Below are positions 1-20,385 of a DNA stretch of 64,000 nt, piece by piece. The stretch lies in assembly GCA_963681965.1 (NCBI GenBank), contig OY820579.1, positions 3,872,001-3,936,000 on the forward strand, in the 5' to 3' direction. A program made the translations under genes and the position numbers. The notes under the pieces were generated by a model. That model ran no database searches, was not told where the DNA came from, and saw only the letters and a program-made list of their open reading frames with translations. Each line of letters begins with the position of its first letter. The first letter of the stretch is position 1. The DNA comes from a bacterium. Its GTDB lineage: Bacteria > Electryoneota > JAOADG01.

Positions 1-316
1 GTTCCTACGCTGCGTTCCTCGCAACGACAGAACAGGATACAGGATTTTAAAAAAAAAGATACCCGAAGATTGCTTCGTCATTCCACTTCGTAAATGCTTC
101 GCATATTACTTCGTTCCATTCCTCGCAACGACAAATCAAGATAAATGATAAAAAAAAGAACGGGCGCCCGCGGGGAGACGCCCCTACTGGCGTATAGTTT
201 TCGCAACGACAAATCACGATATCAGACGAACATGAAAGAGAAAACCGAGCGGGAGGTCCCAGAGGGCCTCCCCTACTAAAGAATACCGAACGGGAGGGCG
301 TGGGAGCCCTCCCCTA
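1..316 (+). repeat. Mosaic cluster of palindromic repeats (GATTGCTTCGTC...CCTCGCAACGAC elements plus ...CCCCTAC REP-like hairpins)
   Basis: CGCAACGAC ends at 28, 131 and 210; hairpins gggcgccc...cgcccctac and gggagg...ctcccctac; near-identical copy at about 1833-2150. Confidence 0.9.
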
Positions 317-479
317 CTTTGATAATGATGGATGCATGACTTGCCGCGGTAAAAAAAATCGACTACTGCGATTGTGTCTAAGTATAGCGGAACTCAAGAG
401 ATGGGTCATCCGTTACAGAGCTATCGACTGCGCGGGTTGGCGAAGATCGCACGCCAGTTGGTTTTGATGGAGCTGAAAA

Positions 480-788
480 ATGGATTGTCCACGCTGTACC
501 AATGTCAACCTGGTCGTATCGGATCGCGCCGGAATCGAAATCGACTATTGCCCCACCTGCCGCGGAATCTGGCTGGATCGCGGCGAATTGGATAAAATTA
601 TCGAACGGTCTCAGAGTTATGCCGCCATGGCACCGACCGCGGTAAATCATCCGCCTTCGCGCGAAGACTACCGCTACGAGGAACACGGTCACGATAAGCA
701 TCGCGATCACGATTCACACGGATATTCCGGTCACGATTCGTACAAACACGGTCGTCGCAAATCGTGGCTGCAGGAACTGTTCGACTAA
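480..788 (+). CDS. zf-TFIIB-type zinc-ribbon protein with His-rich tail (copy 1)
   Basis: CPRC...IEIDYCPTCRGIWLDRGELDKII and C-terminal KSWLQELFD; RBS GGAG upstream. Confidence 0.9.
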   Translation: MDCPRCTNVNLVVSDRAGIEIDYCPTCRGIWLDRGELDKIIERSQSYAAMAPTAVNHPPSREDYRYEEHGHDKHRDHDSHGYSGHDSYKHGRRKSWLQELFD

Positions 789-817
789 CCGATCCAATCG
801 CTGTGGAAATTGAAATG

Positions 818-843
818 AGGTGGATGAAAATCCACCTTTTTTT
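818..843 (+). terminator. Intrinsic terminator after the zinc-ribbon gene (second copy at 2650-2675)
   Basis: AGGTGGAT-GAAA-ATCCACCT hairpin followed by a T run. Confidence 0.75.
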
Positions 844-845
844 CG

Positions 846-1262
846 TATGGGCGTATGGCATACGCCCTTTTCCGATCAAGATGCTCATATCAAAAAAAGT
901 AGGTTGCCACACTTCGCCAGCCTTTGGTTGTCTTCGTTCGCAACGACAGATCAGGATACAGGAATTAAGAGATACCCGAAGATTACCTTCAGTGAGCCCT
1001 TCGGGGTTGCTTCGTCTCTTCGCTACGGAAGTGCTGCGCACGTTCCTACGCTGCGTTCCTCGCAACGACAGAACAGGATACAGGATTTAAAAAAAAAAGA
1101 TACCCGAAGATTGCTTCGTTATTCCACTTCGTAAATGCTTCGCATGTTACTTCGTTCCATTCCTCGCAACGACAAATCAAGATAAATGATAAAAAAAAGA
1201 ACGGGCGCCCGCAGGGAGGCGCCCCTACTGTTGCAAAGTTGGCGCAACGACAAATCAGGATA
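846..1262 (+). repeat. Mosaic repeat cluster (CGCAACGAC-family elements and REP-like hairpins)
   Basis: Four CGCAACGAC ends; segments recur at about 1762-2042 and 3150-3450. Confidence 0.9.
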
Positions 1263-1430
1263 CAAGACACCGGATTTAAAGCATTAACCACGGAGAGCAT
1301 CTACGAAGGAACAATAAGACGCAAAGTGGCACCAACTTGTCGTTGCGAGGAATGAAGCGAAGGATCGTCAGCCACAGGATGACAGCCGTAGCGAAGAGAC
1401 GAAGCAATCTTCAGGTAATCTTTATTATTA

Positions 1431-1459
1431 TTGCATACAGAACCACTATGCAATATAAT
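1431..1459 (+). promoter_or_regulatory. sigma70-type promoter of the GIY-YIG gene (probably leaderless)
   Basis: TTGCAT (1431-1436)-N17-TATAAT (1454-1459); ATG at 1466 with no Shine-Dalgarno. Confidence 0.7.
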
Positions 1460-1465
1460 AAAATC

Positions 1466-1756
1466 ATGAAAACGTATTATGTCTACTTCATCACCAATCA
1501 TACGAACACAGTCCTCTATGTCGGTGTGACCAGCAACCTCGCACGTCGCTTGCAGGAGCATCGATTAGGCGTTGCAATGGGGTTTTCAAAGCGGTACCGA
1601 TTGACAAAGTTGGTCTATGTCGAGCAGACGACTGATCCGTCAGCGGCAATTGCGCGCGAGAAAACGATTAAAGGATACTCCCGGGCGCGGAAAGACGAAT
1701 TGGTGAATGCACAGAATCCAGAATGGAAAGATATCTCGGATCAGATTCCACTGTAG
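1466..1756 (+). CDS. Small stand-alone GIY-YIG endonuclease (UPF0213/YhbQ-like)
   Basis: YYVYFITN...VLYVGVTSNLARRLQEH...LVYVE...AIAREKTIKG...NPEWKD; start reassigned from 1337 to ATG 1466 because the ORF-track extension runs through the repeat arm. Confidence 0.9.
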   Translation: MKTYYVYFITNHTNTVLYVGVTSNLARRLQEHRLGVAMGFSKRYRLTKLVYVEQTTDPSAAIAREKTIKGYSRARKDELVNAQNPEWKDISDQIPL

Positions 1757-1832
1757 AAAAACGATACCCGAAGATTACCTTCGGTGAGCCCTTCGGGGTT
1801 GCTTCGTCTCTTCGCTACGGAAGTGCTGCGCA

Positions 1833-2683
1833 CGTTCCTACGCTGCGTTCCTCGCAACGACAGATCAGGATACAGGATAAAAAAAAAAGGATACCCGAAG
1901 ATTGCTTCGTCATTCCACTTCGTAAATGCTTCGCATGTTACTTCGTTCCATTCCTCGCAACGACAAATCAAGATAAATGATAAAAAAAAGAACGGGCGCC
2001 CGCAGGGAGGCGCCCCTACTGTTGCAAAGTTTTCGCAACGACAAATCACGATATCAGACGAACATGAAAGAGAAAACCGAGCGGGAGGTCCCAGAGGACC
2101 TCCCCTACTAAAGAATACCGAACGGGAGGGCGTGGGAGCCCTCCCCTACTTTGATAATGATGGATGCATGACTTGCCGCGGTAAAAAAAATCGACTACTG
2201 CGATTGTGTCTAAGTATAGCGGAACTCAAGAGATGGGTCATCCGTTACAAATCTATCGACTGCGCGGGTTGGCGAAGATCGCACGCCAGTTGGTTTTGAT
2301 GGAGCTGAAAAATGGATTGTCCACGCTGTACCAATGTCAACCTGGTCGTATCGGATCGCGCCGGAATCGAAATCGACTATTGCCCCACCTGCCGCGGAAT
2401 CTGGCTGGATCGCGGCGAATTGGATAAAATTATCGAACGGTCTCAGAGTTATGCCGCCATGGCACCGACCGCGGTAAATCATCCGCCTTCGCGCGAAGAC
2501 TACCGCTACGAGGAACACGGTCACGATAAGCATCGCGATCACGATTCACACGGATATTCCGGTCACGATTCGTACAAACACGGTCGTCGCAAATCATGGC
2601 TGCAGGAGTTGTTCGACTAGTCGATCCAATCGCTGTGGAAATTGAAATGAGGTGGATGAAAATCCACCTTTTTTTCGTATGGG
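1833..2683 (+). repeat. Direct segmental duplication of about 1-851 (offset 1832 bp)
   Basis: Near-identical sequence covering the repeat cluster, zinc-ribbon gene and terminator. Confidence 0.92.
2312..2620 (+). CDS. zf-TFIIB-type zinc-ribbon protein with His-rich tail (copy 2)
   Basis: Protein identical to 480-788. Confidence 0.9.
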   Translation: MDCPRCTNVNLVVSDRAGIEIDYCPTCRGIWLDRGELDKIIERSQSYAAMAPTAVNHPPSREDYRYEEHGHDKHRDHDSHGYSGHDSYKHGRRKSWLQELFD

Positions 2684-2685
2684 CA

Positions 2686-3600
2686 AATCAGGATACAGGA
2701 GATAAAAAGATACAATCATAATAGCTTCACAAATTTGTCGTTGCGAGGAACGAAGGGCGCAACCGTGTGCGCCCGAAGAGACGAAGCAATCTATTTTTTT
2801 CATGAAACGACAAATCAAGATAAAAAAAGATACCCGAAGATTGCTTCGTCTCTTCGCTGCGGAAGTGCTACGCACGTTCCTACGCTGCGTTCCTCGCAAC
2901 GACAGAACAGGATATAAGATATAAGATACCCGAAGATTACTTTCGGTGAGCCCTTAGGGGTTGCTTCGTCTCTTCGCTACGGAAGTGCTGCGCACGTTCC
3001 TACGCTGCGTTCCTCGCAACGACAAATCAAGATAAATGATAAAAAAAAGAACGGGCGCCCGCGGGGAGGCGCCCCTACTGGCGTATAGTTTTCGCAACGA
3101 CAAATCAGGATAAAAGATGATGGCGACTCTAAAGAGCCACCTCCAGTCGTAGGGGCGTATGGCATACGCCCTTTTCCGATCAAGATGCTCATATCAAAAA
3201 AAAGTAGGTTGCCACACTTCGCCAGCCTTTGGTTGTCTTCGTTCGCAACGACAGAACAGGATACAGGACATAAAAGATACCTGAAGATTACCTTCGGTGA
3301 GCCCTTAGGGGTTGCTTCGTCTCTTCGCTACGGAAGTGCTGCGCACGTTCCTACGCTGCGTTCCTCGCAACGACGAATCAAGATAAATGATAAAAAAAAG
3401 ATCGGGCGCCCGCAGAGAGGCGCCCCTACTTCCGAAATGTTTACCCAACGACAGATCAGGATATAGGAATAGGGCGGCACTAAAGTGCTACCTCCGATCG
3501 AACAAGCGAACAGCTCTTCGCGCTGAAAGACAATCGCAGGCTCGGAGGTCTGCGCCACCGAAAAGATGGGGATTGGGTGGTAGGTGTTGGGCAGTTGGAA
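2686..3600. repeat. Large mosaic repeat cluster, including a gene-less inverted pair (2737-2903)
   Basis: GTCGTTGCGAGGAA...GAAGCAATCT then GATTGCTTCGTC...CCTCGCAACGAC; further direct copies and GTAG-type hairpins. Confidence 0.88.
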
Positions 3601-3650
3601 AAAGATGAGTTGCGGCAAAATTTGGAATCGCCAGAGGGATTCACTTATCT

Positions 3651-3682
3651 TATATCTAACTGATATATATCACTCTGATAGA
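3651..3682 (+). promoter_or_regulatory. Tandem palindromic operator, probably for PadR autoregulation
   Basis: TATATC-N5-GATATA (3651-3667) and TATATC-N5-GATAGA (3666-3682) just before the padR-like start. Confidence 0.6.
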
Positions 3683-3689
3683 GGTCAAG

Positions 3690-4262
3690 ATGAAACGCGA
3701 GAATATGACCCGATTCGCAATCCTCGGTTTGATATCGAAACAACCGATGAGCGGTTTCGATATCAAGAAAGCCGTCGATCAAGGGATCGGCTATTTCTGG
3801 AACGAGAGCTACGGTCAACTCTACCCCATCCTCAAGACACTCGCCGCCGAAGGATTGGTCGAGATGGCGATCGAACAGACCAGCGGGAAACCGGATCGTC
3901 ACGTCTACTCGATCACTTCTACCGGCTTGCAAGAATTGCGCTCATGGCTGATGCGACCGGTGGAAGCGCAACGTGTTCGCAATACGCTGCTGCTGCGACT
4001 GTTCTTCGGCGACAATGTGCCGACCACTGTCAGTATCCAACAAATCGAAGGAGTGTGCAATTTCAGTCGCGGATTACTCGCACAATTCGAGCAGCTGGAA
4101 CCGATCTTCAAACAACGTCCCGCATTCGAATACATCACCCTGATGTTCGGAATGACCTACCACAAAACCATTGTGGAATGGGGCGAGCAGGCGATTCAAC
4201 TATTGCAGCAACAACCATCGACAAAGTCGAACAAGAAACAGCGATCAGGACGAAAATCATGA
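3690..4262 (+). CDS. PadR/AphA-family transcriptional regulator
   Basis: FAILGLIS..PMSGFDIK...FWNESYGQLYPILKTL...YSITSTG...WL. Confidence 0.92.
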   Translation: MKRENMTRFAILGLISKQPMSGFDIKKAVDQGIGYFWNESYGQLYPILKTLAAEGLVEMAIEQTSGKPDRHVYSITSTGLQELRSWLMRPVEAQRVRNTLLLRLFFGDNVPTTVSIQQIEGVCNFSRGLLAQFEQLEPIFKQRPAFEYITLMFGMTYHKTIVEWGEQAIQLLQQQPSTKSNKKQRSGRKS

Positions 4263-9861: not shown

Positions 9862-10592
9862 GGTAAGGGCGCTCTTACGCGTCCGCCCGAACCCGATGAT
9901 AATACACAAATATTTACCTTTCGCAAAAAATATTTTTCCTGATTGCGAATAAAATCGATCTTCAACAGACACGGGCGGACGCGGAGGAACGCCCCTACCA
10001 AAAAAAGGAGTCGGAATGAATTCCGACTTACGGAAAAGAAGTGAGTCGCATGCTCGGAGGATTGCTATTTTTTGTAGGGGCGTATCGCATACGCCCCAAG
10101 CGGCAGGCAGCGCCTGACGCATTGAATGGGAGATGAGGGTTAGGGGTTGGGAATTAGGAAATGATTAAAGCATAGATTGCCACGTCCTTCATGCGCCCTG
10201 CGGCGCATTCAGTCCTCGCAATGACAGAACAGGCTACAAGATAAAAAGATAGAAGAATTGGTCAGAACAAGTTCTGACCTACGGATAAGATAGGTATTGG
10301 GTGATAGGTGGTGGGGGTTGGGAAAAGATAAATAAAAGATACAAGAAGTGGTCAGAACAAGTTCTGACCTACGGATAAGATAGGTATTGGGTGATAGGTG
10401 GTGGGGGTTGGGAAAAGATAAATAAAAGATACAAGAAGTGGTCAGAACAAGTTCTGACCTACGGAAAAGAATATTCACGCAGGCTCGGAGGCCTGCGCCA
10501 CCAACAGAATAGGGATTGGGTGTTAGGTGGTGGGTAATAGGAAAAGATAATAAAAGATACGAGAAGAGGTCGGAATAAATTCCGACCTACCG
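9862..10592. repeat. REP/BIME-like mosaic with a 90-bp tandem array
   Basis: GTCAGAACAAGTTCTGACC at 10261, 10351 and 10441; also GTCGGAAT.AATTCCGAC, CGCAGGCTCGGAGGCCTGCG and GATTGCCAC...CTCGCAATGAC (10175-10225). Confidence 0.9.
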
Positions 10593-15309: not shown

Positions 15310-15985
15310 ATGGGATTGGTGGTGGAGGTTAGGTGATGGGGATTGGGAAAAGACCGGTCGCGGGTGCAAGTGATGGGATCAGAAGGGTAGCGGCGGACTT
15401 TAGTCCGCGTTTTGTTTTCTTTGTAGCCGCAGGCTTTAGCCTGCGTTTTTTCTTGAATCTTGTATCATTCGCCCGATCATTTTTGGACACAAGAGGAGTC
15501 GGAATAAATTCCGACCTACGGAAAAGATAGGTTGTGGGGATTGGGAAAAGAAAAAACAGATAAACGATAGATTGCTTCGTCTCTTCGCTACGGAAGTGCT
15601 GCGCACGTTCCTTCGCTGCGTTCCTCGCAACGACAAAACAGGATACAGAATGCGGGCGGGCACGGGGACCCGCCCCTACTATAGGATACAAGATACAGAA
15701 TACAAGATAAAAAAGAGACAAGAAGTGGTCAGAACAAGTTCTGACCTACGGAAAAGATGGGTGGTGGGGGATAGGGGTTGGGGATTGGGAAAAGAAAAAA
15801 CAGATAAACGATAGATTGCTTCGTCTCTTCGCTACGGAAGTGCTGCGCACGTTCCTTCGCTGCGTTCCTCGCAACGACAAAACAGGATACAGAATGCGAA
15901 CGGGCGCGGGGACCCGCCCCTACTATAGGATACAAGATAAAAAAAGATAAAAAAACGGGCGGACATTGGAGCCCGCCCGTAGTAT
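15310..15985. repeat. REP mosaic with a duplicated block (244-bp offset) carrying GATTGCTTCGTC...CCTCGCAACGAC elements
   Basis: Elements at 15570-15634 and 15814-15878; GTAGCGGCGG, GTAGCCGCAGG, GTCGGAATAAATTCCGAC and GTCAGAAC hairpins. Confidence 0.9.
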
Positions 15986-19689: not shown

Positions 19690-20385
19690 AATAGATACAA
19701 GATAGATTGCCACACCCCCTGCGGGGCGGGTTCGCAATGACAGAAAAATAGGTTTCAATGTGGCGGGGCTAAAGCCCCACCTCCAACAAAGGGCAAACGC
19801 CCAGATTGTTGTTATGGTAGGGGCGGTTCGTGAACCGCCCGTGTCCATTCAGGATGCACAAACACCAGCGCGATTGCCACAGCCCATGCGGGTTCGCAAT
19901 GACAGAAAAAAAGAAAAAAGAGCGGGCGGACACGGGGGTCCGCCCCTACTGAATACAGGACACAAGATGAGTCGGAATAAATTCCGACCTACCGAAAAAA
20001 AGTGAATCGCAGGCTCGGAGGCTTGCGCAACCAAGACAGAATCAAGATCACAAGATGAGTCGGAATAAATTCCGACATACCGAAAAAAGTAATCGCAGGC
20101 TCGGAGGCCTGCGCCACCAGGACAGAATCAAGATCACAAGATGAGTCGGAATGAATTCCGACATACCGAAAAAAGTAATCGCAGGCTCGGAGGCCTGCGC
20201 CACCAGGACAGAATCAAGATCACAAGATGAGTCGGAATGAATTCCGACATACCGAAAAAAGTAATCGCAGGCTCGGAGGCCTGCGCCACCAAGACAGAAT
20301 CAAGATCACAAGATGAGTCGGAATAAATTCCGACCTACCGAAAAAAAAGTGAATCGCAAGCTCGGAGGCATGTGCTACAAAAAAA
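19690..20385 (+). repeat. REP mosaic with a BIME-like 86-bp tandem array (5 units)
   Basis: GTCGGAAT(A/G)AATTCCGAC at 19971, 20059, 20145, 20231 and 20317, alternating with CGCAGGCTCGGAGGCCTGCG; GATTGCCAC...TCGCAATGAC at 19705-19741 and 19872-19903. Confidence 0.92.

Follow-up and report, generated by a model that had tools for sequence, protein, structure and literature searches.

Why should a gene for a very small nuclease sit between two inverted copies of one dispersed repeat? The question is raised by a stretch of 64,000 nucleotides, here called the window, which covers positions 3872001-3936000 of contig C1 in the complete genome (4.24 Mb, 47% G+C) of a bacterium of the phylum Electryoneota (G000), and in which a stand-alone GIY-YIG gene lies between two oppositely oriented members of a repeat family. 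The original prediction, made from the letters of the DNA, likened this arrangement to repetitive extragenic palindromic (REP) elements and their REP-associated tyrosine transposases (RAYT). The locus is a divergent enzyme-repeat pair of the Ssn kind, a kind already published, and the segment 1339-1861 may be read as an Ssn-type cassette, mobile or derived from a mobile unit, whose scattered repeats would be its non-autonomous offspring; we give this reading an even chance. The architecture recurs across a set of 141 loci, the class of repeat co-varies with the clade of the protein, and the protein has a homolog in Neisseria gonorrhoeae.

The protein matches the GIY-YIG family PF01541 over residues 4-75 (Pfam, E 2.6e-15), which is its sole domain, and with 96 amino acids it has no DNA-binding extension. 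Alignment with 29 homologs favours the start at ATG 1466; a copy held in the database begins instead at ATG 1448 and has 102 amino acids. Across these 30 sequences Y7, G20, R28, H32, E65 and N84, which we take to be the catalytic residues, do not vary, and Y18 is conserved to 90% or more. The best 120 database homologs are 86-146 amino acids long and carry PF01541, four of them together with the related family PF10544. An NCBIfam profile search gave no match above cut-off, the group I intron endonuclease model TIGR01453 matching weakly at E 7e-4, far under its own cut-off. The sole match in a PDB sequence search is 1ZG2, a UPF0213 protein (E 0.009), and a phage collection holds a single weak one, in Ralstonia phage RP13 (E 8e-9). 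Within the family the window protein belongs to a subclade with the signature K-G-(G/Y)-S-R, whereas Neisseria-like members carry K-x-W-x-R.

The repeat that brackets this gene has about 130 copies in the genome; a two-box pattern finds 139, a few of them spurious-looking, with 108 distinct sequences among the 137 copies of at most 75 nt. Its common plan is an unpaired 5' GTC tag followed by (A/G)TTGC, a variable centre and GCAA(T/C)C (consensus GTCRTTGCGA...GCAAYC, 32-71 nt), the tag being present in all copies. Two subclasses can be told apart. The short one (61 copies, 32-48 nt) folds into a 5-bp outer stem, ATTGC/GCAAT behind the tag, an internal loop, and then an inner stem that is rich in GC and differs in sequence among the copies; the long one (78 copies, 55-72 nt) has a purine-rich centre laden with GCGAAG. 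The median fold z-score of the 137 copies is -2.7. Conservation also extends over ~20 nt 5' of the tag (..TCcTGATTT-GTC), and on the tag strand the element is followed by a run rich in T. Long open frames cover 89% of the genome and hold 35% of the copies, which therefore avoid them. Tandem arrays with a period of ~101-104 nt are common: six long-subclass elements stand at genome positions 2252401-2252970 with a spacing of exactly 101 nt, and the tandem spacing in the window is ~103-104 nt (for example 1005-1173 and 1797-1964). Inverted pairs without a gene make up 14 of the 50 neighbouring pairs less than 400 nt apart.

The two copies on either side of the nuclease gene belong to one family in reverse complement, and both lie where the original prediction had placed them. 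Their arms agree closely, 22 nt pairing at 100% (1386-1407 with 1799-1820) and 31 nt at 87% (1338-1368 with 1832-1862), and their centres differ, so that they are two members of the family with common ends and not one perfect inverted repeat. A second GIY-YIG gene of the same genome (1431258-1431539), 64% identical to the window copy, shows the same bracketing geometry, but its flanking repeats are of the short subclass, those of the window copy of the long one.

The pairing extends well beyond this genome. We compared 141 loci, of which 61 come from the same phylum and 80 from a collection of named genomes, with 2000 random sites in the window genome, seeking the stem within 150 nt of the gene; the 80 are a biased sample, since the search peptide, taken from an alignment of eight sequences, selected the K-G-G-S-R subclade. 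A GTC-tagged stem lies within that distance of 120 of the 141 genes, against 20.5% of the random sites, and on both sides of 92, against 1.15%; in 73 both tags are distal, as in the window, which is true of 0.2% of the random sites. Homologs are flanked far more often than random places, as the original prediction had anticipated. The stems vary by locus (TTGC, TTCC, TCCT, TCCC, TTCT) and the GTC tag stays constant. Repeat class also follows the protein tree, as anticipated too: five classes laid on the tree need 18 changes, against a mean of 41.7 and a minimum of 37 when shuffled (none of 500 shuffles was as low), and the same-phylum subset needs 14, against a mean of 23.4 and a minimum of 19. 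Proteins with K-G-(G/Y)-S-R have the TTGCGA class on at least one side in 69 of 71 loci and those with K-x-W-x-R in 5 of 37, and paralogs with different repeat classes coexist within each of five genomes (G006, G010, G018, G033, G037). Among 41 genomes, made up of 40 same-phylum relatives and the window genome, 34 have a homolog; 20 of the 21 with at least ten TTGCGA-class repeats are among them, and 6 of the 7 genomes that lack a homolog have no repeats of that class. Both-sided flanking, co-variation along the tree and the geometry of the paralog indicate that the nuclease gene and the repeat family belong together, as RAYT and REP do.

A system of this kind is known from Neisseria. Chenal et al. 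(Nat Commun 2025, PMC11893778; what is said of this paper refers throughout to the part of it at hand) described SsnA of Neisseria meningitidis, a single-domain GIY-YIG protein of 94 amino acids (CDD cd10448) whose gene is bracketed by NTS hairpin repeats in the order NTS-ssnA-NTS. SsnA binds the NTS hairpin in single-stranded DNA (ssDNA), cuts just one of the two strands, upstream of the hairpin, leaves double-stranded DNA (dsDNA) and RNA uncut, and reduces transformation by NTS-flanked DNA (PMC11893778). The authors found one or more flanking repeats of the type they call SRM at 71% of Ssn homologs, and repeats on both sides at 42%; they likened the system to insertion sequence (IS) elements and to the IS200/IS605-REP-BIME series (BIME, bacterial interspersed mosaic element), and they proposed domestication. 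The analogy to RAYT and REP is therefore already in print as a hypothesis. As a statement about the pairing of nuclease and repeat it holds for the window locus as well; that the nuclease spreads the repeats is demonstrated neither here nor in the part of PMC11893778 at hand.

The kinship itself can be followed in sequence. With tblastn the window protein matches N. gonorrhoeae NZ_CP119140.1 at 1882263-1882541 (E 5e-13, 38.7% identity), which places it inside the threshold of E < 1e-10 by which Chenal et al. define homologs (PMC11893778), and pairwise BLASTP against the gonococcal open reading frame (ORF) gives E 3e-22 at 39% identity. This ORF of ~94 amino acids lies among 11 NTS matches, six of them exact, in 1,279 bp, and is presumably the ortholog of SsnA. 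Sequences within three mismatches of the NTS consensus flank seven homologs from the same phylum, which share 42-49% identity with the window protein. Azospirillum lipoferum 4B carries on plasmid AZO_p3 (255118-256190) a cassette of the Ssn type, with SRMs in inverted orientation to either side, between sufB and sufC. These two genes normally lie within one operon. The strain is among the reference genomes of Chenal et al. (PMC11893778). The window system resembles the published one in its single-domain GIY-YIG protein of ~94-96 amino acids, in the position of the gene between inverted, oriented repeats with a 5' (C/T)GTC tag and a stem starting ATT(G/C)C, and in a repeat that occurs in tens to hundreds of copies, mostly intergenic and often clustered. 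It differs from the published one in the greater length of the repeat (32-71 nt), in the 5-bp outer stem with its internal loop and variable inner stem, and in the purine-rich centre of the long subclass, which standard parameters fold poorly. What it adds to the work of Chenal et al. is a repeat that escapes the SRM definition, two paralogs each with its own subclass, and the arrays of ~101-104 nt.

How completely the repeat escapes can be seen from the published SRM pattern, HGTCWYN(0-2)YYVSBRHN(0-5)WNVSBRGN(0-2)RNCYNB (PMC11893778). It has nine matches in the genome, none of them in the repeat family, which is no more than chance (3-7 per Mb in three Markov simulations), and it matches 0 of 73 loci of the window protein's subfamily against 8 of 37 of the K-x-W-x-R subfamily. 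Supplementary Data 4 of Chenal et al. scores Seleniivibrio woodruffii and Draconibacterium orientale as ssnA- and cd10448-positive at the level of the genome, and SRM enrichment is absent there (0.96-fold and 0.56-fold; PMC11893778). The GIY-YIG proteins of these species are 57% and 56% identical to the window protein, and because such ssnA-positive species with homologs from the subclade show no enrichment, the figure of 71% is probably an underestimate. Subclade matches with 45-61% identity to the window protein occur in Chloroflexota, Cyanobacteria, Bacteroidota, Pseudomonadota, Patescibacteria, Bacillota and other phyla, and the hosts of the GTCATTGCGAGG...GAAGCAATC class also include Elusimicrobiota, Planctomycetota and others. 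The published census seems to overlook this class, and a large protein subclade uses repeats that the SRM pattern does not see.

Several observations point to movement. The cassette occupies non-orthologous places in the window genome, in G001 of the same genus and in G003 of the same family: in G001 it adjoins a gene whose ortholog in the window genome (89% amino acid identity) lies at 660,847-662,106, the other neighbour being different, and the two neighbours of the G003 cassette map 630 kb apart in the window genome. The best matches from other phyla (60% in Chloroflexia, 61% in Oscillospiraceae) are as close as the same-genus copy (58%), and one genome, G037, holds 12 matches to the nuclease, several with internal stops. 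From its homology we predict that the protein binds the TGTC-tagged repeat when this is folded in ssDNA and nicks the strand a few bases 5' of the GTC tag; cleavage that is specific to ssDNA and to one strand and depends on a hairpin was established for other members of the family only (PMC11893778). Gene and repeats together may form, or may derive from, a mobile unit that changes its locus and passes from one phylum to another. Solitary repeats and arrays would in that case be its non-autonomous offspring, founded or maintained through the action of the nuclease on ssDNA, and the cassette would correspond in function to REP/RAYT while relying on another enzyme. A bolder version, which we put forward only tentatively and think on the whole unlikely, makes the GIY-YIG nuclease the replicating enzyme of TGTC-tagged repeats: a second, HUH-independent partnership of the REPIN-RAYT type that would copy by nicking hairpins in ssDNA, with two specific pairs in one genome and with the cross-phylum GTCATTGCGAGG...GAAGCAATC class serving a distinct subclade. 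The Ssn enzymes, the first endonucleases that cut ssDNA site-specifically, are also of practical interest, and every pairing of enzyme and repeat may offer a specificity not yet available. The window genome, being complete and having both two paralogs and two subclasses of repeat, lends itself to tests of specificity and could settle whether Ssn-type nucleases spread their repeats.

Other observations weigh against a mobile cassette with its offspring. The original prediction had looked to empty and filled sites in related genomes; comparison of the window genome with G001 and G003 defined no clean empty site. Inspection by eye of the cassette ends in G001 shows no direct repeat that might be a target-site duplication, and the window genome yielded no second, near-identical cassette, its two paralogs being 64% identical. 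The local cluster of repeats grew at least in part by segmental duplication, a block of 933 bp being present twice as direct copies at 97.4% identity (1754-2684, and 1-852 with its start 77 nt before the window). The nearest flanking pair has no fixed orientation: among the 57 subfamily loci tagged on both sides the tags are distal in 28 and proximal in 13, and in 16 the pair is direct, and at the gonococcal locus the nearest NTS pair has them proximal. By standard DNA parameters the copies that flank the window gene fold no better than shuffled sequence (z = 0.08 and -1.15), so that the hairpin is well supported for the short subclass only. The tests by tree and tally overstate the case, since related genomes do not count as independent samples. 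In 10 of the 21 genomes with at least ten repeats, a tally that rests mostly on incomplete assemblies, no nuclease copy among those examined is flanked by that class, and G004 has 21 TTGCGA-class repeats, 20 of them on one strand, and no homolog. Strict one-to-one dependence of nuclease and repeat is partly disfavoured by these ten genomes.

Could the repeats be targets rather than offspring? If the nuclease is solely a domesticated host function, they would be fixed recognition sites for cutting ssDNA, be it transforming or conjugative DNA, ssDNA phage or recombination intermediates, and would multiply by ordinary duplication and recombination. We regard this as a real possibility, short of probable: SsnA lowers transformation by NTS-flanked DNA (PMC11893778), the invariance of the key residues in 30 homologs argues for a maintained function, cluster growth was partly by the 933-bp duplication, the arrays are tandem, and the repeats lie beside multicopy genes for secreted surface proteins, as NTS do in Neisseria. 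Such a role fits less well with a cassette that is not syntenic within the family and is as similar across phyla as within a genus, with the 12 matches of G037, some of them decayed, and with a repeat class of its own beside each paralog, which a purely host-encoded signal would not need. A homing-type parasite would reverse the order of events, the repeats existing beforehand and spreading by other means while the GIY-YIG gene cuts repeat pairs and is copied into them by repair. GIY-YIG is a classic homing-endonuclease fold, and the weak match to TIGR01453, the frequent inverted pairs without a gene and the many genomes that have repeats without a cognate flanked gene would all suit such a course. 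Homing needs a double-strand break, yet the characterised Ssn enzymes spare dsDNA (PMC11893778); the protein lacks a DNA-binding extension, and differing centres in the flanking copies would be unexpected had an insertion split one repeat pair. We consider homing improbable.

That the gene merely happens to lie in a repeat-rich intergenic region, among unrelated terminators or RNA elements, is very improbable. The 3.9-kb region is indeed packed with several kinds of repeat, and the T-rich run behind the element could be taken for part of a terminator, but the both-sided flanking in 92 of 141 loci and the way in which repeat class tracks the protein tree contradict coincidence, and the asymmetric GTC tag is conserved across classes whose stems differ. 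A search of window positions 1-4000 against Rfam gave just two matches, both at chance level, and no Rfam family fits the repeat. Still harder to credit is the idea that the repeats are mobilised by a RAYT-type Y1 (HUH) transposase encoded elsewhere in the genome, the GIY-YIG gene being a bystander. Two matches to PF01797 (Y1_Tnp) above cut-off, at genome positions 526789-527022 and 529738-529974, are RAYT-like candidates; the nearest element of the repeat family is ~3.3 kb away from them, however, and a pattern search found neither this family nor the GTAG-tagged hairpins described below within 900 nt of them. Nor did Di Nocera, De Gregorio and Rocco (2013, PMC3733652, in the part of it at hand) find a tyrosine transposase flanked by CGTC-type repeats.

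The REP superfamily with CGTC or TGTC tags that these authors describe, including dRS3 and the RPEs of Rickettsia, was reported without a dedicated transposase (PMC3733652), and the window family shares with it the one-sided tag (here TGTC), the palindromic body, the intergenic and clustered distribution, and a genome that also carries GTAG-tagged repeats. CGTC REPs have a continuous stem of 8-9 bp whose first two pairs are A-T, and a loop of 4-5 nt (PMC3733652); in the window family the stem is interrupted after its 5-bp outer part by an internal loop, and its first base is G in 97 of 137 copies. With REP/REPIN-RAYT the cassette has in common a low-copy enzyme gene between inverted copies of a dispersed hairpin repeat, the co-variation of enzyme and repeat, two enzyme-repeat pairs in one genome and BIME-like arrays. 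It departs from them in its GIY-YIG instead of HUH/Y1 fold and chemistry, in a GTC instead of a GTAG tag, and in offering no evidence of transposition; moreover, REPIN-RAYT systems are described, in the part of that literature at hand, as vertically inherited, whereas the window cassette looks horizontally mobile. IS200/IS605 elements likewise have a small gene between subterminal hairpins, recognition in ssDNA being only a prediction for the window system, but the hairpins in the window are inverted and not in the same orientation, there is no Y1 transposase or TnpB, and no defined ends or target sites are seen at the cassette. An insertion sequence would be recognised by near-identical copies, defined ends and target-site duplications; here the gene has two copies that are 64% identical.

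Table. Nuclease gene and repeat elements in the window (positions count from its first letter).
Feature	Position	Strand	Remark
ssn-like gene, 96-aa single-domain GIY-YIG nuclease	1466..1756	+	Pfam PF01541; residue conservation; N. gonorrhoeae homology
Left flanking repeat, long subclass, 71 nt, GTCGTTGCGAGGAA...GACGAAGCAATC	1339..1409	+ (tag first)	ends 56 nt before ATG 1466
Right flanking repeat, long subclass, 65 nt, + strand GGTTGCTTCGTC...CCTCGCAACGAC	1797..1861	- (tag first on -)	40 nt past stop
Full element cut by window edge	1..28	-	genome 3871964-3872028; two-box pattern
Full element, long subclass	68..132	-	
Full element, short subclass	902..947	-	..GTGTGGCAACC
Full element, long subclass	1005..1069	-	
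Full element, long subclass	1109..1173	-	
Full element, long subclass	1900..1964	-	
Full element, long subclass	2737..2791	+	second copy in the cluster with tag on +
Full element, long subclass	2839..2903	-	
Full element, long subclass	2959..3023	-	
Full element, short subclass	3207..3252	-	
Full element, long subclass	3310..3374	-	
Dispersed full element	10175..10225	-	
Dispersed full element	15570..15634	-	
Dispersed full element	15814..15878	-	
Dispersed full element, short subclass	19705..19741	-	
Dispersed full element, short subclass	19872..19903	-	

In the window the nuclease gene lies within a spacer of 3.9 kb (genome ~3871560-3875470) before a PadR-family gene (3690-4262). Within the window this spacer contains 13 full elements, and others lie shortly ahead of the window. 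For the repeat end CGCAACGAC the window has 19 occurrences where 1.06 are expected, a number reached in none of 100 shuffles; 17 of these ends fall in 1-3460, 15 on the + and 2 on the - strand, close to the 18 or so that had been claimed. The five outlying positions named by the original prediction each proved to be the start of a full element (the dispersed elements of the table), three of which terminate in CGCAATGAC. Four CGCAACGAC ends, at 202, 1243, 2034 and 3093, are not full elements, because a GC hairpin ending in CCCCTAC and not the 5' box precedes them, which suggests composite or disrupted elements. Hairpins of this second family, whose ends read in reverse as GTAG-tagged, stand at 163-196, 243-280, 290-318 and 850-868, and the genome has ~405 matches to their pattern. 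The second 933-bp block opens with the cassette's right flanking repeat, and each block carries one of two identical genes for a zinc-ribbon protein of 102 amino acids (PF13453; 480-788 and 2312-2620), one on either side of the cassette.

Some minor points concern the repeats of this and related genomes. The first stem pair (tag base 4 against the 3' box) shows no significant covariation (Fisher p = 0.12), and nothing is drawn from a strand bias of 86:53 relative to the direction of replication given by GC skew, because tandem copies are not independent. A reading of the array as integron attC-like was dropped by eye only, its ends being unlike the core-site form. In five genomes (G004, G009, G012, G019, G033) there are 21-111 TTGCGA-class repeats and, among the nuclease copies examined, none flanked by that class. 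A repeat that seemed to lie in frame within an ORF of 997 amino acids (genome 22704-24572) was set aside, the ORF being a read-through of two genes and their spacer; across seven paralogous copies the spacer is swapped as a whole, without a clean insertion. The same segment belongs to a multicopy family, present at seven or more other sites with 80-87% nucleotide identity, that encodes secreted beta-propeller proteins (DUF7948, SBBP, Por_Secre_tail), and repeats adjoin these genes in their spacers in a manner that recalls the NTS clusters beside surface-protein genes in Neisseria.

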